A DNA stretch of 64,000 nucleotides from Omnitrophica bacterium GWA2_41_15 (lineage in GTDB: Bacteria; Omnitrophota; Gorgyraeia; Ghiorseimicrobiales; Ghiorseimicrobiaceae), in the NCBI GenBank assembly GCA_919902105.1, contig CAKKQO010000035.1:67547-131546 (forward strand). Reading direction: 5' to 3'. Below are positions 1 through 61,131 of the stretch, piece by piece (within the stretch, counting starts at the first letter, position 1; the number at the start of each line of letters is the position of its first letter). The position numbers and the translations under genes are program-made. The notes beneath the pieces are model-generated. The model made no database searches, was not told where the DNA came from, and saw only the letters and a list, made by a program, of their open reading frames with translations.

Positions 1-783
1 TTGGAGATGGTGAAATTTGCCCAAGGAAAACCTGTAATTATTAAGGCCGAAAAAAAGGATTCTTTTAAGCTAAGTGCTTTAGCCTTAAGCAAAAATATCA
101 CTAAAAAAAGCAAACTCCTTATCTTGAATTCCCCATCGAACCCCGCGGGATATATTTATACAAAAAAAGAATTAGAGGCTCTCGCCGAAGTATGCGTAAA
201 AAATAAGCTCTTTGTTATCAGCGACGAGATATACGAAAAACTTATTTATGGGAATAACCGGCATGTCTCTATTGCCAGCCTAAACAAGGATATATATAGG
301 CTTACTTTTGTGGTAAACGGAGTCTCTAAGGCTTATTCCATGACCGGCTGGCGTATTGGATACCTTGCTGGAGATAAAGAGATAGTTGAGGCAACAGCGC
401 GGCTGCAAGACCACTCTACTTCTTGTCCTTCTTCTATTTCTCAGAAGGCGGCCCTCGCAGCGCTCTCATCGGGCGACGAATTTATTGATAAAATGCGTTT
501 AGAATTTGAAAGCAGGCGTAATCTAATGCTCGCTGGTTTAGATAAATTAGGGCTAGAGTATATAAAGCCCGAGGGGGCTTTTTATGTTTTTGTTGATATT
601 TCTAAAACAAAGATGCCCTCTTGGGATTTCTGCAATAAGTTTCTGGAAGAAAAATATGTGGCCGCAATCCCTGGGGGTGCCTTCGGTAATGATAATTATG
701 TGCGTTTTAGTTTTGCGACAAGCCCGGAGCAAATTGAAAAAGGCATACAAAGATTAAGGGAGTTTTTGAGCTCGCCCCGTTAG
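1..783 (+). CDS. Class I/II PLP-dependent (aspartate-type) aminotransferase, 5'-truncated by window edge
   Basis: ORF enters from the 5' edge. Motifs LNSPSNPAG, SDEIYEKLIY and NGVSKAYSMTGWRIGY (SKxxxMTGWR PLP-lysine region) fit AspC-family enzymes. The last two codons and the stop lie inside the 775-893 repeat. Confidence 0.85.
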   Translation: MEMVKFAQGKPVIIKAEKKDSFKLSALALSKNITKKSKLLILNSPSNPAGYIYTKKELEALAEVCVKNKLFVISDEIYEKLIYGNNRHVSIASLNKDIYRLTFVVNGVSKAYSMTGWRIGYLAGDKEIVEATARLQDHSTSCPSSISQKAALAALSSGDEFIDKMRLEFESRRNLMLAGLDKLGLEYIKPEGAFYVFVDISKTKMPSWDFCNKFLEEKYVAAIPGGAFGNDNYVRFSFATSPEQIEKGIQRLREFLSSPR

Positions 784-893
784 AGATAACCTCTGAACTA
801 TTTATGGCTACTAAGCAAATTATGGAAGCGCTGTTTGTTATTACGCCTCTGCCCAGATAGACGGTCGTCTCTGACGACCTATCTCTAACGGGG
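775..893 (+). repeat. 119-bp element with perfect 14-bp terminal inverted repeats (CCCCGTTAGAGATA / TATCTCTAACGGGG), copy 1; MITE-like or structured RNA element
   Basis: TIRs at 775-788 and 880-893. Internal 7-bp hairpin ggtcgtc-tct-gacgacc at 863-879. A second copy of identical length lies at 3346-3464 in inverted orientation. Confidence 0.7.
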
Positions 894-903
894 TAAAATT
901 AAC

Positions 904-2163
904 ATGGGTAAGACTATCGTTGAAAAGATATTAAGTGCGCACGCCGGCCGTGATTTAATCGCGGGCGACTTTGCTATTTGCGAGGTAGATTTTTGTTTTG
1001 GCCAGGATGGAACAAGCGCCATTATTATCGATAGGATTAAAGCGCTCGGCGTAACCAAGCTCGCTAATAAAGATAAATTCTGTATGGTTATAGACCATAG
1101 TTCTCCCAGCCCGAATACGGGGGTATCTAAAGTGCATAGTAAAATGCGCAGCTTTGCCGCGGAATTTAACTTGAAGATTTATGACATTGGCTGCGGTGTC
1201 TGCCATGAAGTAGTCCCTACTGAGGGAAATGTGTTACCCGGAGATTTGGTGCTCGGTGCAGATTCGCATACTTGCACCTATGGAGCAATAGGCGCATTAT
1301 CTTGCGGTGTTGGTTCAACAGATTTAGCTGTTAGCTTAGCCAGCGGTAAAAATTGGTTTAGGGTGCCTGAGACAATAAAAATCGAGATAAATGGAAAATT
1401 ACCCAAGGGAGTATATGCTAAAGACCTTATTCTTTATATTATCGGCGATTTAGGGGCTAATGGTGCAACTTATAAGGCAGTCGAATTTTACGGCAGCACT
1501 ATCGATAATTTATCTCTTGACGGGCGCTTTACAATGAGTAATATGGTAGTAGAGATGGGGGCGAAATGCGCTTTCTTTCCAGTGGATAAAAAAGTCCTTG
1601 AGTGGGTAAAGGCACGGCGCATAAATCGTAAAGCAAAAGTTTATAAGGCGGATTCCGATGTAAAATATTGCTTAGTGAAAAAATATGATGCAGAAAAAGT
1701 TACTCCGCAGGTTGCCAGGCCCCATACAGTAGATAATGTGGTTAGCTTAAAAGAAGTAAAGGGGAAACGGATCGACGAAGCATTTTTAGGGACTTGCACT
1801 AACGGAAGGTTAGATGACTTAAAAGTTGCGGCTAAAATATTAAAAGGGAGAAAGATAAATCCCGGAGTTAAGTTTATAGTTGCGCCTGCTTCGCGCCGGA
1901 TTTATTTAGAAGCATTAAAATTAGGCTTAATTGATATTTTTATAAAAGCAGAGGCAGTAGTAATTAGCCCGGGCTGCGGGCCGTGTGTAGGCACGCATAT
2001 GGGGATACCATCCGATAAAGAAGTAGTAATATCCACGGCAAATAGAAATTTTAAAGGCAGGATGGGTAATCCTGAGTCGGAAATTTATCTTGCTTCTCCG
2101 GCTACTGTTTGCGCTTCAGCCGTAACCGGTAAAATAACCGATCCGAGGGGATTTTTAAAATGA
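904..2163 (+). CDS. leuC: 3-isopropylmalate / homoaconitate-type dehydratase large subunit (aconitase family, short ~420-aa type)
   Basis: 419 aa. Aconitase-family motifs GADSHTCTYGA, GTCTNGR and SPGCGPCVG (Fe-S cysteines). The matching small subunit is at 3469-3969. Confidence 0.85.
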   Translation: MGKTIVEKILSAHAGRDLIAGDFAICEVDFCFGQDGTSAIIIDRIKALGVTKLANKDKFCMVIDHSSPSPNTGVSKVHSKMRSFAAEFNLKIYDIGCGVCHEVVPTEGNVLPGDLVLGADSHTCTYGAIGALSCGVGSTDLAVSLASGKNWFRVPETIKIEINGKLPKGVYAKDLILYIIGDLGANGATYKAVEFYGSTIDNLSLDGRFTMSNMVVEMGAKCAFFPVDKKVLEWVKARRINRKAKVYKADSDVKYCLVKKYDAEKVTPQVARPHTVDNVVSLKEVKGKRIDEAFLGTCTNGRLDDLKVAAKILKGRKINPGVKFIVAPASRRIYLEALKLGLIDIFIKAEAVVISPGCGPCVGTHMGIPSDKEVVISTANRNFKGRMGNPESEIYLASPATVCASAVTGKITDPRGFLK

Positions 2164-2168
2164 GTTTG

Positions 2169-2287
2169 TCCCGCCTCGTAAAATGTGTGAAAATTCTATC
2201 CTACAATTTTCACACACTCGGCGGGATCAATTCCGACATATAATTTACGTAAAACTTGTTTACGTAAATTATGTCGTCATTGAGGAG
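2169..2287 (+). repeat. Bipartite hairpin cassette: hairpin1 - ATCAATTC - hairpin2 - TCATTGAGGAG, then 8 nt and ATG; copy 1
   Basis: Hairpin 1 spans 2169-2226 (tcccgcc/ggcggga plus gtgtgaaaatt/aattttcacac). Hairpin 2 spans 2234-2277 (cgacatataatttacgtaaa/tttacgtaaattatgtcg). The conserved linkers and Shine-Dalgarno spacing recur at 12890-13006. Confidence 0.55.
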
Positions 2288-2295
2288 AAATAAAA

Positions 2296-3345
2296 ATGTT
2301 AGATTTAAGGACTTTACTTATGGTTACCATAGATAGGAAAGCCTCGGATTTACACATTACCGAGGGTGCTTCTCCGATATTGCGTATTTACGGAAGATTA
2401 GTCCATACCGACTTTCCGAAATTGACCAAAGAGGATACCAAAAAATTAATTTATAGCATGCTCACAGAAGCGCAGAAAGAGGCATTTGAGAAAGATTTAG
2501 AGTTAGACCTTTCGCTTGCCCTTCCCGGGCTTGACCGTTTCCGGGTAAATGTGCATATCCAGCGGGGTGCGGTGGAAGCAGCATTTCGCAGGATTCCGCT
2601 GCTTATCCCTACCGTCGATGAATTAGGCCTGCCGCAAATAGTATTGGAATTATCCAGAAAACCTAATGGCTTAGTTTTAGTAACCGGCCCTACGGGCGTA
2701 GGAAAGACTACTACGCTGGCAGCCATGGTAAATTTAATTAATTCTGAGCGGGAAAATATAATTATCTGCATTGAGGACCCGATAGAATTCTTACATTACA
2801 ACAAAAAGAGTATTGTTAAACAGCGTGAGGTTTTTTCTGATACAAAATCTTTTGCTGAAGCTTTACGCCATGCTTTAAGGCAGGATCCTAATGTGATTGT
2901 GGTCGGTGAGATGCGCGATTTAGAGACTATCTCTACGGCTTTGACGGCTGCAGAAACCGGGCATTTAGTTTTGGCAACCTTGCACACTCCCGATGCCCCT
3001 CAGACAGTACAAAGAATTATTGATGTTTTTCCTCCGCATCAGCAACAGCAGGTGCGCCTGCAGTTATCCGACTGCCTGCAGGGAGTTGTATCGCAGCTAC
3101 TTTTGTCTCGCGCCACAGGGGAAGGCAGGGTTTTAGCAACGGAGGTGATGATCGGAACAAGCGGCATTAAAAATTTAATTCGTGAGCAAGAAGTAGAACA
3201 AATTCCGACCTTAATCCAGACAGGCGCGCAATATGGCATGAGGACGATGGATAAGTCTTTAAAAGAGATGTATAAGGCAGGGATTATCTCCTATGATACA
3301 GCGTTATCCAGGGTAAAAAACCCGCAAGATTTCAGGAATCTCTAG
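2296..3345 (+). CDS. pilT: Type IV pilus retraction (twitching motility) ATPase PilT
   Basis: 349 aa. Walker A GPTGVGKTTT, Walker B/Asp-box IVVGEMRD, His-box LVLATLHT; length and N-terminus are typical of PilT. Confidence 0.9.
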   Translation: MLDLRTLLMVTIDRKASDLHITEGASPILRIYGRLVHTDFPKLTKEDTKKLIYSMLTEAQKEAFEKDLELDLSLALPGLDRFRVNVHIQRGAVEAAFRRIPLLIPTVDELGLPQIVLELSRKPNGLVLVTGPTGVGKTTTLAAMVNLINSERENIIICIEDPIEFLHYNKKSIVKQREVFSDTKSFAEALRHALRQDPNVIVVGEMRDLETISTALTAAETGHLVLATLHTPDAPQTVQRIIDVFPPHQQQQVRLQLSDCLQGVVSQLLLSRATGEGRVLATEVMIGTSGIKNLIREQEVEQIPTLIQTGAQYGMRTMDKSLKEMYKAGIISYDTALSRVKNPQDFRNL

Positions 3346-3464
3346 CCCCGTTAGAGATAGGCCATCATAGATGGCCGTCTATTACGGGATAGGTAATAAC
3401 AAAACAATATCTTCCATAAGTAAGCAGTTAGTTTTAAGTAGTAGATAAGTTATCTCTAACGGGG
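3346..3464 (-). repeat. 119-bp TIR-bounded element, copy 2 (inverted relative to copy 1)
   Basis: Same 14-bp TIRs at 3346-3359 and 3451-3464. The interior aligns to the reverse complement of copy 1 (shared gtctat, aataacaaa, cttccataa blocks). Hairpin ggccatc-ata-gatggcc at 3360-3376 carries two compensatory base-pair changes versus copy 1. Confidence 0.7.
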
Positions 3465-3468
3465 TAAA

Positions 3469-3969
3469 ATGAATATTAAAGGCACTGCAATAAAGTTAGG
3501 TAATGATATAAATACTGACCTGATCATTTCCGGCAGGTATAAATTTTCCATAACCGATATAAAGGAACTTTCCAAGCATATCTTCGAGGATCTAGATGTT
3601 GGTTTTGCCGCAAAGATAACTCCGGGCGAATCTATTATTGTGGCGGGTGAAAATTTCGGCATGGGCTCATCGCGGGAACAGGCGCCTTTAGCGATAAAAG
3701 AGGCGGGGATAAAGGCTATAGTCGCGAAAAGTTTTGCTCGTATTTTTTACCGTAATGCCTTTAATATTGGTTTTCCTCTCATCGAAGCAGACACTGACAA
3801 GATATCCGAATACGAAAGAATAGAGATAGATTTAGAGGCAGGCTTCATTAAGAATGAAGCCAACGGCTCTAAAATACAAACAAAGCCCATACCAAGCGTA
3901 CTTAAGACGCTGCTCGCTGACGGCGGCTTGGTGAATCATTTTAAAAAAAATCAGGGATTAAAACTGTAG
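3469..3969 (+). CDS. leuD: 3-isopropylmalate / homoaconitate-type dehydratase small subunit
   Basis: 166 aa. Swivel-domain motifs GENFGMGSSREQAP and FARIFYRNAFNIG. Partner of the 904-2163 large subunit. Confidence 0.85.
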   Translation: MNIKGTAIKLGNDINTDLIISGRYKFSITDIKELSKHIFEDLDVGFAAKITPGESIIVAGENFGMGSSREQAPLAIKEAGIKAIVAKSFARIFYRNAFNIGFPLIEADTDKISEYERIEIDLEAGFIKNEANGSKIQTKPIPSVLKTLLADGGLVNHFKKNQGLKL

Positions 3970-3977
3970 GCCAGTAG

Positions 3978-4015
3978 ATTCTTTCTTAGCAGTAAAAAGA
4001 AAGAATTTATTTTTG
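3978..4015 (+). terminator. Candidate rho-independent terminator after leuD (AT-rich stem)
   Basis: attctttctt (3978-3987) pairs with aagaaagaat (3997-4006), followed by ttatttttg. Confidence 0.5.
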
Positions 4016-4021
4016 CCTATA

Positions 4022-4053
4022 TTGTTAACTTAATTGATTTATGAAGTTGACAA
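4022..4053. promoter_or_regulatory. Candidate BirA operator (bioO-like inverted repeat) upstream of the biotin operon
   Basis: TTGTTAAC-N16-GTTGACAA resembles the E. coli bioO half sites TTGTAAAC...GTTTACAA. It lies upstream of bioB. Confidence 0.45.
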
Positions 4054-4072
4054 TACTAAACTAATAGGGTCA

Positions 4073-4251
4073 TTCGTAATTATTGTGGGATTATTTGAAA
4101 ATGAGTTATGAAAAATAGTCCAGATTTTATACGAAAGAACCTAAAACTTTGCAGTCATCTGCCAAAAAATTTCTAATTGTGTGCGAACAATGCTTTCATC
4201 TATCTTGTAGTTTATCAACTACTTACCTAAATAATCTACAATAATTACGAA
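4073..4251. repeat. ~180-bp segment bounded by a 14-bp perfect inverted repeat (TTCGTAATTATTGT / ACAATAATTACGAA) in the bioB leader
   Basis: Inverted repeats at 4073-4086 and 4238-4251, extendable to ~22 bp with mismatches. The TACGAAAG motif is shared with the ends of the 6541-6737 element. Confidence 0.4.
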
Positions 4252-4264
4252 AGAATCAAAGAAT

Positions 4265-5260
4265 ATGAACGATAAATTTTTATCACACATAGAGAAGAAG
4301 GTATTGCGAGGTGAAGAGATTACTTTTTCCGAAGCAGAGGAGCTATATCGTATCGATGACAATAACATTATGCCTATTTTATCCAGTGCCTCAGCCATTA
4401 CCAGAAAATATAGGAAGGATATCGTAAATTTATGCGCTATTACGGCTGCCCGTTCGGGGCTATGCCCTGAAGATTGCGCTTTCTGTGCTCAGTCCATGCG
4501 TCATCATACCGGACTTAGCGTATATCCGCTTATCTCTGAAGGAGAAATGTTAAAAAAAGCAGAGGAGGCGCAAAAATATTCGGCTAACCGATTTTGTATT
4601 GTTACCAGCGGAAGAAGCGTAAATGAAAAAGAGTTGGAAGTAATCACCCGCGCAATCAAAAAAATTAAAAATAAATTTCCAAATCTTAAAGTAGATGCTT
4701 CATTAGGGATATTAAAAGCACCAGAGATAGAAAAACTAAAAGCAGCTGGTTTAGACCGCTATAACCATAATTTAGAAACTGCCGAGAGTTACTTCCCTAG
4801 GATATGCACTACGCATACCTATGCCGAAAGGATGTCGACCATAAAACTGATTAAAAAAGCGGGCATTGAAATCTGCTGCGGCGGCATCATCGGCTTAGGT
4901 GAGAGTAACGCGCAAAGGATAGAACTTGCCTTTACCTTAGCCGAATTAGATATCGACAGCCTGCCTTTAAATTTCTTAAATCCTGTTCCTGGAACCTCCC
5001 TTAAAGATATTCATCCGCCCTCTCCGTTTAATATCCTTAAAACTATTGCGCTCTTTCGTTTCATCATCCCTAAAAAAGAAATAAGAATTTGCGCTGGTCG
5101 GCAGGTTAACTTAAGGAGCATACAGCCGTTTATTTTTATGGCTGGCGCTGATGCAATTATCATCGGAAATTACCTGACTACTAAAGGAAGCGAGCCCCAA
5201 GACGACCTAAAGATGCTCGACGATTTAGGGCTAAGTAGAATAAGGGGACACTCCTTGTAA
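4265..5260 (+). CDS. bioB: Biotin synthase (radical SAM)
   Basis: 331 aa. CPEDCAFCAQS radical SAM motif and overall BioB-like sequence; first gene of the bio cluster. Confidence 0.95.
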   Translation: MNDKFLSHIEKKVLRGEEITFSEAEELYRIDDNNIMPILSSASAITRKYRKDIVNLCAITAARSGLCPEDCAFCAQSMRHHTGLSVYPLISEGEMLKKAEEAQKYSANRFCIVTSGRSVNEKELEVITRAIKKIKNKFPNLKVDASLGILKAPEIEKLKAAGLDRYNHNLETAESYFPRICTTHTYAERMSTIKLIKKAGIEICCGGIIGLGESNAQRIELAFTLAELDIDSLPLNFLNPVPGTSLKDIHPPSPFNILKTIALFRFIIPKKEIRICAGRQVNLRSIQPFIFMAGADAIIIGNYLTTKGSEPQDDLKMLDDLGLSRIRGHSL

Positions 5261-12889: not shown

Positions 12890-13006
12890 ACCGACAGCAA
12901 AGCGCGGCGTAGATTTCTTGCGAAATCTACTTGCAGCTGTTGGTATCAATTCCGGCTGATAACTTATGTCGCCTCTGGCTCCATAAGTTATGCCGTCATT
13001 GAGGAG
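12890..13006 (+). repeat. Bipartite hairpin cassette, copy 2 (hairpin1 - ATCAATTC - hairpin2 - TCATTGAGGAG, then 8 nt and ATG)
   Basis: Hairpin 1 spans 12890-12944 (accgacagc/gctgttggt plus gtagatttc/gaaatctac). Hairpin 2 spans 12953-12995 (cggctgataacttatg/cataagttatgccg). Linkers and SD-to-ATG spacing match 2169-2287, but the stems differ in sequence. Confidence 0.55.
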
Positions 13007-13014
13007 AGTTTATT

Positions 13015-58499: not shown

Positions 58500-59915
58500 A
58501 TGAAGCTGGTTAAAGATATATCATTCTTGATTATCGCGGGGATTATATTAGGAATTGTTATTACATTTTCAGCCGGTGGTATTTTTTTGAGTTTATTGAT
58601 TTTTCTGTCAGGCTTTTTGATATGGAAGTGCAGCAAAGAAGAGGATAGAAAATTTTTAACATATATTTTCATTAGCGGTATAGCCATAAGAATGATTATT
58701 TATTTAAGCTATACCGATATCTCTCTTCTGTTTGGAAAAGGTGGTTGGTTTGGAGGTGATGCTTATGGAATTTATAACTATGCATGGTTATATGTTCAAA
58801 AGCTTGAAGGCAGCAGAAGATTTTTAATAAATAGTTTGGATAATGGCATGGCATATGATATGAGTCAAGATTTTTATAATTATTATGGCGGTAGTTATGA
58901 AAAACTAATCAACAGCTTTCATTACGGAAATTATGGTTTTCATGGTTTCACAATGTTATTGGCATATTTATTTTATATCTTTGGGCCTATAAAATTCTCC
59001 GGGAGGCTTATAAATATTCTCTTTGGCGCACTAAGCGGGATCTTTATTTATTATCTTGTAAAAAGAATTTATGGACAAAAATCCGCCAAAATAGCCGCTG
59101 TATTAGTAACTTTCTTTCCTTCAATGTTTATTTGGTCATTGGATTTTTTTAAAGACCCGCTTTATATATTGTTCTCTATCGTAGCGTTCTGGTCATTTAT
59201 AATGTACTGGGATACAAAAAAAATTTTATATATTATACTAATTTTTATTGCCGTAATTATTCAAAGCACGATTAGAGAGGATTTGTGGCTTATAGGATTG
59301 ATTCCCTTTACGTTAGGATTTTTTCTGGTTTTAAAGCCCACAGCGATAAAAAAGATTGTATTTATTTCGATCATAGGGATAATGCTAATATTTTTTATAC
59401 ATAACAGAGGAAGTATTTATACATATATTAGTAACAAGATAGCATTGGCCCTTCAAATTCATGTAGGTAATGTTAACACTAGCGATCTTTCCGGTGGTTA
59501 TGCTTATAGGATTTTAGACGATAGATACTATATTCCTGTAAATTACAGTGTCAATAATATAACCCTCTACGAAGGATTAGGAGCATTTTTAAAGGGATGG
59601 TGGCATTTTTTATTTCAACCTTTTATATGGAGCATTAAATCAAAATCTATGTTAATGGCATTTCCACAAATGGTTTTATGGTATATGCTGCTTATGTTTG
59701 CTTTTGTAGGAATCATCTTTGGGCTTCGTTATAAGTGGAAATATGCGATAGTAATGGTGAGTTATCTTTTTTTAGTATCATCGATCATTGCTTTATCCAG
59801 TGGAAACATTGGAACTTTATTCCGCCATAGAGATATGATAACGCCGTTTTATCTGATATTTAGTGCGGTAGGGATTAGGCATTTGCTGAAAATTCCTCGC
59901 GAAACCAAATTTTGA
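58500..59915 (+). CDS. Polytopic membrane protein, probably a fourth GT-C/ArnT-like transferase (Wzy-like role not excluded)
   Basis: RLINILFGALSGIFIYYLVKRIYGQKSAKIAAVLVTFFPSMFIWS resembles the ArnT/PMT loop-helix region. The ATG at 58500 avoids the overlap created by the track TTG start at 58455; the start is uncertain. Confidence 0.55.
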   Translation: MKLVKDISFLIIAGIILGIVITFSAGGIFLSLLIFLSGFLIWKCSKEEDRKFLTYIFISGIAIRMIIYLSYTDISLLFGKGGWFGGDAYGIYNYAWLYVQKLEGSRRFLINSLDNGMAYDMSQDFYNYYGGSYEKLINSFHYGNYGFHGFTMLLAYLFYIFGPIKFSGRLINILFGALSGIFIYYLVKRIYGQKSAKIAAVLVTFFPSMFIWSLDFFKDPLYILFSIVAFWSFIMYWDTKKILYIILIFIAVIIQSTIREDLWLIGLIPFTLGFFLVLKPTAIKKIVFISIIGIMLIFFIHNRGSIYTYISNKIALALQIHVGNVNTSDLSGGYAYRILDDRYYIPVNYSVNNITLYEGLGAFLKGWWHFLFQPFIWSIKSKSMLMAFPQMVLWYMLLMFAFVGIIFGLRYKWKYAIVMVSYLFLVSSIIALSSGNIGTLFRHRDMITPFYLIFSAVGIRHLLKIPRETKF

Positions 59916-59922
59916 TTATTAA

Positions 59923-61131
59923 ATGAAGGCATTATATATCTCTTACGACGGAATGACAGATCCTTTGGGGCAGGCGCAGGTTATTCCATATTTAATCGGT
60001 CTGACAAAGAAAGGTCATAATTTTACCATCTTAAGCTATGAAAAATATGATAAATATATTCAATTTGGGGAAAAGGTTAGGAAGCAATTAAAAGATAATT
60101 CTATTGTATGGAGGCCTTTTCGTTACCATAAGAGATTTTCCGTGGTCGCGACTTCTTATGATATTTTTTCCGGGTTTATTTATTTATTATTTTTTATACC
60201 AGCGCAAAAAATCAAAATTTTGCATTGCAGAAGTTATATAACCTCTATCTTGGGGTTGTTATTCCATAAGATATACGGGACAAAATTTATTTTTGATATG
60301 CGCGGTTTCTGGGCTGATGAGAGATTGGAAGGGGGTATATTTAAAAAAAATTATATATATTACTTTTTTAAATATTTGGAGAAACAGTTTATAAAAAATT
60401 CCGATGCAATCATTGCTTTGACTGTAAATTCAATTGAGGAAATGAAAACTTGGCATTATGTTTCCGAAAAATATAATAACAAATTCTATCATATAACCAC
60501 CTGTTGCGATATTGATAAGTTTAGGCAAACTTATAACTCCAGATTACAAAAAAAAGTTGATATTAATCATCTTAATTTTGTTTACATAGGTTCAATTGGA
60601 CCATGGCATTCTTTAAAGGATGTATCTGATTTTATTGTGTTTACATATGAGTATCTACCTGCATCACGCTTTAAAATTATTGTCAATTCTGGCAAAGAAC
60701 AACTCTCCCAATTTATCGGATCGAAAGGGTTGAATAGTAACCGATTTATTGTTGATTCTGTACCGCACAATAAAATACCTGAGGCTTTGATGGGTGCAGA
60801 TATAGGTCTTTTTTTTATACCTCCGGTATATGCAAAAAAGGCATCTTCACCTACTAAATTGGGTGAAATGTTATCAGCTGGTATTCCTGTTATAACTGGT
60901 CATTCTGTTGGAGATGTTGACCAATTAATAAGTGGTAATAGGGTGGGCTATATTATTAAAGAAGGTGGTATAACGGAATACAAAAAAGCGATTGATTATG
61001 TCATTAATTTAATTAAAGAAAATAGAGAAAAACTGCTTGAAAGATGTCTTGTTGTAGCAAATGATTATTTTTCTCTTGAGAAGGGGATAGAAAAATATCA
61101 TAGAATATATGAGAGATTAACGAATGGGTAG
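59923..61131 (+). CDS. GT4 glycosyltransferase
   Basis: 402 aa. N-terminal MKALYISYDGMTDPLGQAQVIPY and C-terminal SPTKLGEMLSAGIPVI (E-x7-E-like). Confidence 0.75.
   Translation: MKALYISYDGMTDPLGQAQVIPYLIGLTKKGHNFTILSYEKYDKYIQFGEKVRKQLKDNSIVWRPFRYHKRFSVVATSYDIFSGFIYLLFFIPAQKIKILHCRSYITSILGLLFHKIYGTKFIFDMRGFWADERLEGGIFKKNYIYYFFKYLEKQFIKNSDAIIALTVNSIEEMKTWHYVSEKYNNKFYHITTCCDIDKFRQTYNSRLQKKVDINHLNFVYIGSIGPWHSLKDVSDFIVFTYEYLPASRFKIIVNSGKEQLSQFIGSKGLNSNRFIVDSVPHNKIPEALMGADIGLFFIPPVYAKKASSPTKLGEMLSAGIPVITGHSVGDVDQLISGNRVGYIIKEGGITEYKKAIDYVINLIKENREKLLERCLVVANDYFSLEKGIEKYHRIYERLTNG

Follow-up and report, generated by a model that had tools for sequence, protein, structure and literature searches.

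A putative miniature transposon family at gene junctions of Omnitrophica and other bacterial phyla

The stretch of DNA analyzed here, 64,000 nucleotides of contig CAKKQO010000035.1 from Omnitrophica bacterium GWA2_41_15 (hereafter the window), originates from the 0.1-µm fraction of Hainich groundwater and contains two 119-bp elements, E1 and E2, located just upstream of leuC and leuD and bounded by terminal inverted repeats (TIRs). We consider it very likely that E1 and E2 belong to a widespread family of non-autonomous DNA transposons, similar to the small transposable elements with inverted repeats known as MITEs, that survives at gene junctions. The elements of this family are mobile and non-autonomous, are bounded by TIRs, generate 4-bp duplications and carry a hairpin selected for its structure, and their copies persist almost only at gene junctions. 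The family is apparently undescribed so far and appears to represent a miniature transposon of ultra-small groundwater bacteria from several phyla. The names borne by the LeuC homologues of the window likewise point to Omnitrophota.

The two window copies and their family

E1 (775–893, no strand assigned) lies between an aminotransferase gene and leuC, with its hairpin end facing leuC. Its left TIR (775–788, plus strand) reads CCCCGTTAGAGATA and contains the last two codons and the TAG stop (781–783) of the aminotransferase open reading frame (ORF; 1–783), which ends CCC CGT TAG. The hairpin (863–879, no strand assigned; GGTCGTC-TCT-GACGACC) adjoins the right TIR (880–893, minus strand; TATCTCTAACGGGG, the reverse complement of CCCCGTTAGAGATA), and its 5' neighbor, ATAGAC, is the reverse complement of a conserved GTCTAT. 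The downstream flank (894–906, plus strand), TAAAATTAAC, leads to the leuC ATG (904–906), 10 nt past the element. E2 (3346–3464, no strand assigned) directly abuts the TAG stop of pilT (3343–3345) and separates it from leuD, with the hairpin end facing pilT. Its left TIR (3346–3359, plus strand; CCCCGTTAGAGATA) is followed by the hairpin (3360–3376; GGCCATC-ATA-GATGGCC), which together with the conserved GTCTAT (3360–3382, no strand assigned) forms the best-conserved part among the copies of the E type. The right TIR (3451–3464, minus strand; TATCTCTAACGGGG) is followed by a flank (3465–3471, plus strand) of TAAA and then by the leuD ATG (3469–3471), 4 nt past the element. No ORF spans either element. 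Over the whole elements, flanks included, E1 and E2 are 63% identical; an alignment of the interiors requires one copy to be reverse-complemented, and the two hairpins differ by two compensatory pairs. The initial annotation had described these lengths, perfect TIRs, reverse-complement alignment and start-codon distances, as well as the contribution of the first copy to the end of the aminotransferase gene, and all of them were reproduced.

The four exact TIR 14-mers are far beyond chance, since only about 5e-4 are expected in 64 kb. When up to three mismatches were allowed, the window contained 14 matches, compared with a shuffle mean of 4.15, and 0 of 100 shuffles reached 14. All window matches other than the four exact ones are due to chance, and some of them fall within coding sequence. 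One pair of three-mismatch matches (59822 and 59937) outlined a third copy at 59822–59950, which was rejected as a chance occurrence inside coding sequence. A profile built from family members and run over the whole window likewise returned no third copy.

To delimit the family, one genome per species was scanned with the pattern CCGTTAGAGATA, a gap of 76–106 nt, and then TATCTCTAACGG. Besides the window copies, this exact-TIR scan returned at least 112 loci (about 8 kb each) in at least 75 species-representative genomes; the counts out of 114 copies given below rest on the matches listed in it. The initial annotation had called for a search for further copies and had regarded a similarity confined to the two leu sites as the outcome that would speak against its proposal. 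With at least 112 copies elsewhere, a local duplication is excluded. According to the record titles, in which the phylum labels are the depositors' own, the listed loci comprise 61 from Patescibacteria (one of them, L046, derived from a single-cell genome), 12 from Elusimicrobiota, 10 from Planctomycetota, 7 from Omnitrophota, 1 each from Ignavibacteria and Desulfobacterota, and 20 that are unclassified. Among the matches listed, a genome carries up to at least seven copies. The viral contigs searched contained none.

The family TIR is 14 bp long and reads (C/T)CCCGTTAGAGATA; two bases lying outside the search pattern also pair. Two forms of its ends prevail among the listed copies, TCCCG...CGGGA (64 copies, mostly Patescibacteria) and CCCCG...CGGGG (47 copies, mostly phyla other than Patescibacteria). 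The listed elements are 104–133 bp long, most commonly 119 bp, and their interiors are near saturation, with a median identity of 62% for copies of one genome and 52% for copies of different genomes. In 71 of the 114 copies, a hairpin with 6 bp or more lies flush with one TIR, as opposed to 4% at control offsets. This hairpin is GC-rich, has G as its first base and C as its last, and GT comes next; its sequence varies while the pairing is kept, and each of the seven stem pairs shows changes in both partners in a clean subset. Because this subset was picked for pairing, the evidence for the hairpin is the covariation and not the percentage paired. The selection on structure that had initially been read from the two compensatory pairs of E1 and E2 is thus supported by the family. 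Copies that do not have the TIR-adjacent hairpin have an extended terminal stem instead, or shorter hairpins. Past the hairpin, family-wide conservation is limited to GT and one T.

Mini-derivatives of 40–80 bp, whose TIR is identical or a variant (CCCCGTTAGAAA...) and whose interior is very short or missing, were observed in L027 (3838–3879), L020 (3624–3672), L040 (4234–4294), L025 (4693–4741) and L106 (2910–2989). Their presence suggests that the family is wider than the exact-TIR search shows.

Rfam 15, including its leucine leaders and T-box, gave no match over E1 or E2 at E ≤ 1, and no match at the gathering score over the elements in 15 family loci. In the searchable literature, the TIR sequence matched only an unrelated primer, and nothing relevant was found on MITEs in Patescibacteria or Omnitrophota. 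The MITE is a known kind of element. As far as we could find, the distinctive traits of the present family are new: we found no description of the family or its cross-phylum TIR, of insertion that rebuilds a start codon, or of a covarying hairpin next to the TIR.

Target-site duplications, empty sites and start codons

Evidence of movement comes from the flanks. An exact 4-bp direct repeat borders the 14-bp TIRs in 62 of the 114 copies, compared with 9 expected when left and right flanks were shuffled between copies. The duplicated sequences are mostly of the form TNNA (TGAA/TTCA 29, TGGA/TCCA 11, TAAA/TTTA 5, TCAA/TTGA 4 and few others), and TTAA occurs once. Four copies in genome CBDUMF01 are 91–97% identical to each other at different flanks, and a pair in JACQWV01 is 94% identical, again at different flanks; these near-identical copies are recent bursts. 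The CBDUMF01 (Elusimicrobia) copies L015, L087 and L102 have tandem arrays on both sides, built of short units that are CTTGTGCT-like and TACGTATC-like. With regard to the features by which MITEs are recognized, the elements are shorter than 300 bp, non-coding and TIR-bounded, occur as several dispersed copies, and differ in presence between relatives. Target-site duplication is found at the level of the family but not at E1 and E2 themselves.

Both window sites occur empty in relatives. The aminotransferase–leuC junction is empty in L126, whose LeuC is 95% identical to that of the window, and in L128. The pilT–leuD junction is empty in L146, L147 and L148 (LeuD 99%, 96% and 97% identical, respectively), where pilT and leuD overlap as TGATG (L146, 390–400; L147, 1206–1216; L148, 655–665), and also in L123, L124 and L128. 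The filled site reads ...AATCTCTAG[E2]TAAAATGAAT... and the empty one ...AATCT(C/T)TGATGAAT... E2 is a recent insertion that splits this coupled TGATG junction, while E1 is located at an old insertion site of the aminotransferase–leuC junction and provides the last codons and stop of the aminotransferase gene. Together with the further copies and the duplications, these empty sites support the MITE-like mobile repeat family that the initial annotation had put forward as one of its options. Since the order leuC–pilT–leuD is kept in the whole clade, and gene order is collinear in all relatives, pilT is not itself a recent insertion. It is odd that a split leuC/leuD pair should enclose a translationally coupled gene for a type IV pilus retraction ATPase, and this arrangement is found clade-wide. 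In the related Omnitrophota genome of L124, a 48-nt GC-rich palindromic insert (4340–4387; CCAGTCCGACTTCGGCC...GGGTCTGGCGGG) lies inside the left TIR of the aminotransferase–leuC element.

The position of the elements relative to start codons is a family-wide pattern. The last TIR base opens an ORF of 60 codons or more in 68 of the 114 copies (ATG 57, GTG 11), the first base of the rebuilt start codon being supplied by the element and the TG by the duplication. In the Patescibacteria copies, the element ends in T...A within the context A/TGRA (the slash marks the element boundary), and its last A together with the duplicated TG rebuilds the downstream ATG. The copies of Omnitrophota, Elusimicrobiota and Planctomycetota end in C...G and are located mostly a few nucleotides upstream of the start codon. 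For copies with an intact duplication, all 38 of the 38 reconstructed empty sites have a start codon at the exact position, and the in-frame stop lies a median of 10 codons upstream. One PilB, translated from a rebuilt ATG, can be aligned with homologues of equal length starting at its M1. An upstream long ORF ends in the left duplicate in 13 of the 68 copies (an ATGA-type stop/start overlap); because 4 bp are duplicated, the upstream stop and the start are both kept. Of the hairpins, 37 lie at the end proximal to the gene and 9 at the distal one (p = 4e-5). The genes beside the elements have housekeeping roles and are unrelated to one another; no special regulator governs the leu genes, and the element is not leucine-specific.

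The initial annotation had connected the elements with translation initiation and had taken the G-rich TIR end, GGGG, for the only sequence resembling a Shine-Dalgarno site. As a pattern, the link to start codons holds across the family, whereas a recruited initiation region is not supported. In the predicted RNA folds of E1 and E2 (−54 and −50 kcal/mol; z = −3.9 and −5.9), the 14-bp TIR stem closes with the hairpin stacked on it, and GGGG is buried in the stem. Moreover, leuD of the relatives (LeuD 96–99% identical) has no Shine-Dalgarno site and needs none, given its TGATG overlap with pilT. The insertion thus broke up a coupled junction and did not supply an initiation region.

We propose that the TIRs would form the 14-bp stem in the transcript, with the hairpin stacked on it, and that upstream ribosomes entering or stopping at its 5' arm would melt the stem, free the downstream start and thereby maintain translational coupling. 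The aminotransferase gene stops inside the 5' arm and pilT stops directly before it, so that a terminating ribosome would be able to melt the stem at both sites. In Patescibacteria, a short ORF from the original ATG might play the same part. A built-in termination-reinitiation design was considered and rejected, since only in 8 of 56 cases does the ORF from the original ATG reach its end at the TIR's TAA or within an ATGA overlap. A conserved outward promoter was also rejected: conservation past the hairpin is limited to GT and one T, and shuffles contain promoter-like matches involving the shared TAAAAT flank about as often as the real sequences do (6.4 versus 6). In our opinion, no host function is needed to explain the presence of the elements.

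A more far-reaching version of this proposal is a transposon specialized for the junctions of streamlined genomes, in which the start codon is rebuilt (and at ATGA the upstream stop is kept as well) and the insert is transparent to translation by virtue of its TIR stem and structure-selected hairpin, the rebuilt start being unmasked by upstream ribosomes. Such a self-compensating junction module, with one identical TIR, would have colonized four phyla (Patescibacteria, Omnitrophota, Elusimicrobiota and Planctomycetota), and could be the first cross-phylum prokaryotic MITE traceable to an enzyme of the piggyBac/IS1380 type. We regard this combination as speculative and somewhat doubtful.

Difficulties, other readings and the mobilizing enzyme

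Several observations weigh against the transposon explanation. Neither E1 nor E2 has a target-site duplication (flanks CTCG/TAAA and CTAG/TAAA, respectively), and 52 of the 114 family copies lack an exact one. Insertion-sequence copies without duplications are commonly attributed to rearrangements between copies (PMC11708052). An exchange of flanks through inversion between E1 and E2 was rejected here because, reasoning from the flanks, it would not restore matching duplications. The filled and empty pilT–leuD sites also differ by more than a simple insertion. At the aminotransferase–leuC junction, relatives L123, L124 and L127 carry an element whose junctions are those of E1 (AGCTCG/CCCC and GGGG/TAAAAT) but whose orientation is opposite; GGGG/TAAAAT is common to E1, E2 and all three of these elements. 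The elements of the three relatives are 78–83% identical to E2, about the same as among themselves, and only 55–63% identical to the reverse complement of E1. The interior of E1 is thus flipped and divergent between junctions that match those of the relatives, and no sequence of events that we tried fits all junctions. In addition, none of the four TIR arms of the window has a mismatch, despite interiors that differ by more than 30%, and among four copies of the E type one half, which holds the TIR, the hairpin and about 20 nt, is far more strongly conserved than the other. Selfish transposition alone would not predict such a pattern, which hints at a constraint acting in place. In 48 of 56 cases, the frame opened by the original ATG runs into a stop in the element interior. 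The unmasking of downstream starts by upstream ribosomes is something that we only infer. Finally, no autonomous element or transposase with these TIRs was found in the 64-kb window, in the 0.85 Mb of the 112 family loci, or in viral contigs.

Part of this pattern could be accounted for by a structured cis-regulatory or mRNA-processing module that benefits the host and was merely spread by transposition, the TIR stem and hairpin being kept because they control expression of the adjacent gene. Such a module might act as a site for a double-strand-specific RNase, an mRNA stabilizer, an insulator between cistrons, or a protein-binding site. We consider this unlikely, although it does not exclude the transposon explanation. 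The hairpin covaries with free sequence, which indicates selection on a single-stranded fold, is biased toward the gene start (37:9), and belongs to predicted folds that are very stable. Perfect TIRs enclose saturated interiors, and in orthologues that persist across LeuC identities of 79–86% the half with the TIR and the hairpin is conserved. Stem positions other than Watson-Crick pairs lean toward G-U on the outward-reading strand (9 versus 4), a difference that is not significant. However, the neighboring genes are unrelated housekeeping genes, both orientations of the element occur, and the closest relatives do without it at both window sites. Orthologous copies can lose a TIR, as in L123, where the right TIR has decayed, or carry a 48-nt insertion inside it, as in L124. 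The conservation of only GT and one T past the hairpin leaves no common promoter or binding motif, and no Rfam family matches. Furthermore, the apparent conservation of the TIRs is inflated because the set was selected for exact TIRs.

The opposite orientations at matching junctions would also be expected if an invertase flipped either the 91-bp interior or the 2.4-kb leuC–pilT segment by way of the 14-bp repeats and thereby switched expression. The geometry is suggestive, as short inverted repeats bound a segment right beside gene starts, the junctions of E1 equal those of L123, L124 and L127 around a flipped interior, and two CBDUMF01 copies have both flanks in common and opposite interiors. 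Nevertheless, we regard this explanation as very improbable. The initial annotation had suggested an inversion of leuC–pilT, but gene order is collinear in all relatives, and the k=31 contigs of four samples, which are assemblies only, run unbranched from the aminotransferase gene through E1 into leuC. At E2 the assembly branches on the left only, at 3375 and 3353, as would result from a 37-nt stretch (3346–3382) in common with another copy; no branching occurs at the right junction. If flipping took place, a further break would be expected at 3435, where none was seen. Other assembly breaks, at 2243 and 2224, are consistent with a shared stretch of 40 nt in a different repeat. We therefore rejected flipping within the population as the cause of the breaks, which are better explained by the exact 37-nt and 40-nt stretches in common with other copies. 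Moreover, the interior of E1 is a divergent paralogue and not a flipped copy, invertases do not make 4-bp duplications, and no recombinase domain was found in the 64-kb window.

Integron attC-like recombination sites, or a chance resemblance or duplication limited to the locus, can practically be dismissed: the imperfect palindrome of about 120 bp with GTTAGAG and CTCTAAC recalls the GTTRRRY and RYYYAAC cores, and two copies bracket a gene pair, but the GTT/AAC order within the arms is reversed (outward), unlike R''/R', the last core base does not fit, the copies are single, scattered and in both orientations with no arrays, target-site duplications are present, no integrase was found in the 64-kb window, pilT lies between leuC and leuD in all relatives and is thus not a cassette, and at least 112 copies occur elsewhere.

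For the transposon explanation, an enzyme acting in trans would cut at the TIR ends and insert the element with a 4-bp staggered cut that prefers TNNA. Judging from the element ends, this enzyme could be a DDE transposase of the IS1380/piggyBac kind, as suggested by the CC(C) ends, the 4-bp T..A duplications and a CC(C)...TAGA motif. The assignment is only tentative because no partner was found. No recombinase, integrase or transposase Pfam domain occurs in any ORF of the 64-kb window, the 623 ORFs from the 112 loci clustered into housekeeping families only, and a scan of the family loci for inverted repeats 0.8–3 kb apart revealed no insertion sequence. Three lone TIR matches were examined as possible traces of a partner and rejected: the one in L020 belongs to a 48-bp mini-derivative, the one in L051 is a chance match within an ORF, and the one in L002 lies in leuA.

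To our knowledge, a structural hairpin adjacent to the TIR has not been described as a feature of piggyBac or IS1380. No transposase was found linked to the present elements, so that they are only candidate members of this superfamily. The duplications agree in their length of 4 bp (4–5 bp in IS1380) and are of a T...A type there and TNNA-like here, and the CCCCG or TCCCG ends agree with the 5' CC(C) of published ends of piggyBac and of ISEcp1, a member of the IS1380 family. The CC(C)...TAGA motif is found in published piggyBac (CCCTAGAAAGATA), in ISEcp1 (CCTAGATTCTACGT) and here ((C/T)CCCGTTAGAGATA), a short match that could be due to chance. The target of piggyBac is TTAA, whereas TGAA and TGGA dominate here. 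It has been reported that piggyBac has CCC 5' ends and a 4-bp duplication of the TTAA type, that target variants such as TAAA and TCAA occur, and that IS1380 is its prokaryotic relative (PMC10813416). IS701, which makes exact 4-bp duplications, was rejected because its end consensus, ---YACT-Y--YR, does not fit.

Neighboring features and comparison with known repeats

The window consists of the tail of a ribosomal operon, followed by leu, pilT and bio genes and then by a long polysaccharide cluster. The 4-kb leu stretch contains up to five small insertions, including E1, E2 and two spacer inserts. A second intergenic repeat family is present at 2226–2287 and 12945–13007 and in loci L130–L145, 16 metagenome contigs of which several are from Hainich. 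It is composed of ATCAATTCCG, a hairpin with compensatory changes, and CGTCATTGAGGAG, and has no Rfam match. Since it is always located 5–9 nt upstream of a start codon, its GAGGAG would serve as the Shine-Dalgarno sequence. In L147 (LeuD 96% identical), the 50-nt part 2226–2275 of this repeat is absent. After leuC, a 44-nt palindromic stretch (2176–2219; AAAATGTGTGAAAATT...AATTTTCACACA) occupies the loop of a terminator-like hairpin, CCCGCC...GGCGGG; it looks like a small insertion because the corresponding loop in L147 is just TAC.

The leuD–bioB spacer (3970–4264) is about 160–200 nt longer than in relatives with 96–99% identical LeuD. It contains a 38-nt imperfect inverted-repeat pair (arms 4070–4107 and 4217–4254), just upstream of which a palindrome, TTGTTAAC...GTTGACAA (4021–4052), is by its look a candidate bio operator. 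The very long same-strand polysaccharide cluster (20184–58482) includes about eight B12-binding radical SAM genes, further radical SAM/SPASM genes, four PMT_2-type glycosyltransferases and many methyltransferases.

If the transposon explanation is correct, the family shows how a cut-and-paste element can persist where there is almost no intergenic space, namely by repairing the start codon that it interrupts. Its significance would then lie in being mobile DNA adapted to compact genomes and not in being a leucine-specific regulator. The occurrence of one and the same 14-bp TIR in ultra-small groundwater bacteria of distant phyla would be a marker of DNA exchange among them. There are also practical consequences for genome annotation. 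The inserts of about 120 bp part genes from their ribosome-binding sites and create short spurious ORFs beginning with MNPVRD or MDPVRD, so that recognizing them would improve start calls in candidate-phyla genomes. They also break k-mer assemblies.

Among known repeats, the ERIC/IRU and REP/BIME elements of proteobacteria resemble the present family as imperfect palindromes that lie between the genes of operons, are transcribed and may contribute to mRNA stability. They differ from it in making no target duplications and in having unrelated sequences. REPs are about 35 bp long and are moved by RAYT (HUH-type) enzymes, and their GTAG-type signature is absent here.

The Correia elements of Neisseria (CREE/NEMIS) are non-coding MITEs of about 100–155 bp with 26-bp TIRs and a TA duplication; they occur in a single genus only, and their copies resemble each other over the whole length. 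Both they and the present family have TIRs, a short duplication and many dispersed copies that are often beside genes or co-transcribed with them. The Correia TIRs fold into a long RNA hairpin that can affect processing and expression, and a TIR hairpin is likewise predicted here. Their TIR sequence is unrelated to the 14-bp TIR with its 4-bp, mostly TNNA duplication. In contrast to the Correia elements, the present family has near-unrelated interiors, a covarying TIR-adjacent hairpin and one TIR in several phyla, and most of its copies sit exactly at start codons, which they rebuild. The Rickettsia palindromic elements are, like the present family, small palindromic mobile elements of reduced genomes that persist within genes or at their edges because the insertion leaves the gene usable. 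The means differ: the Rickettsia elements are in-frame and translated, whereas here the frame of the original ATG mostly stops inside the element and the gene restarts at the rebuilt start codon. Judged by analogy, the Correia elements and the Rickettsia palindromic elements are the closest functional analogues of the present family.

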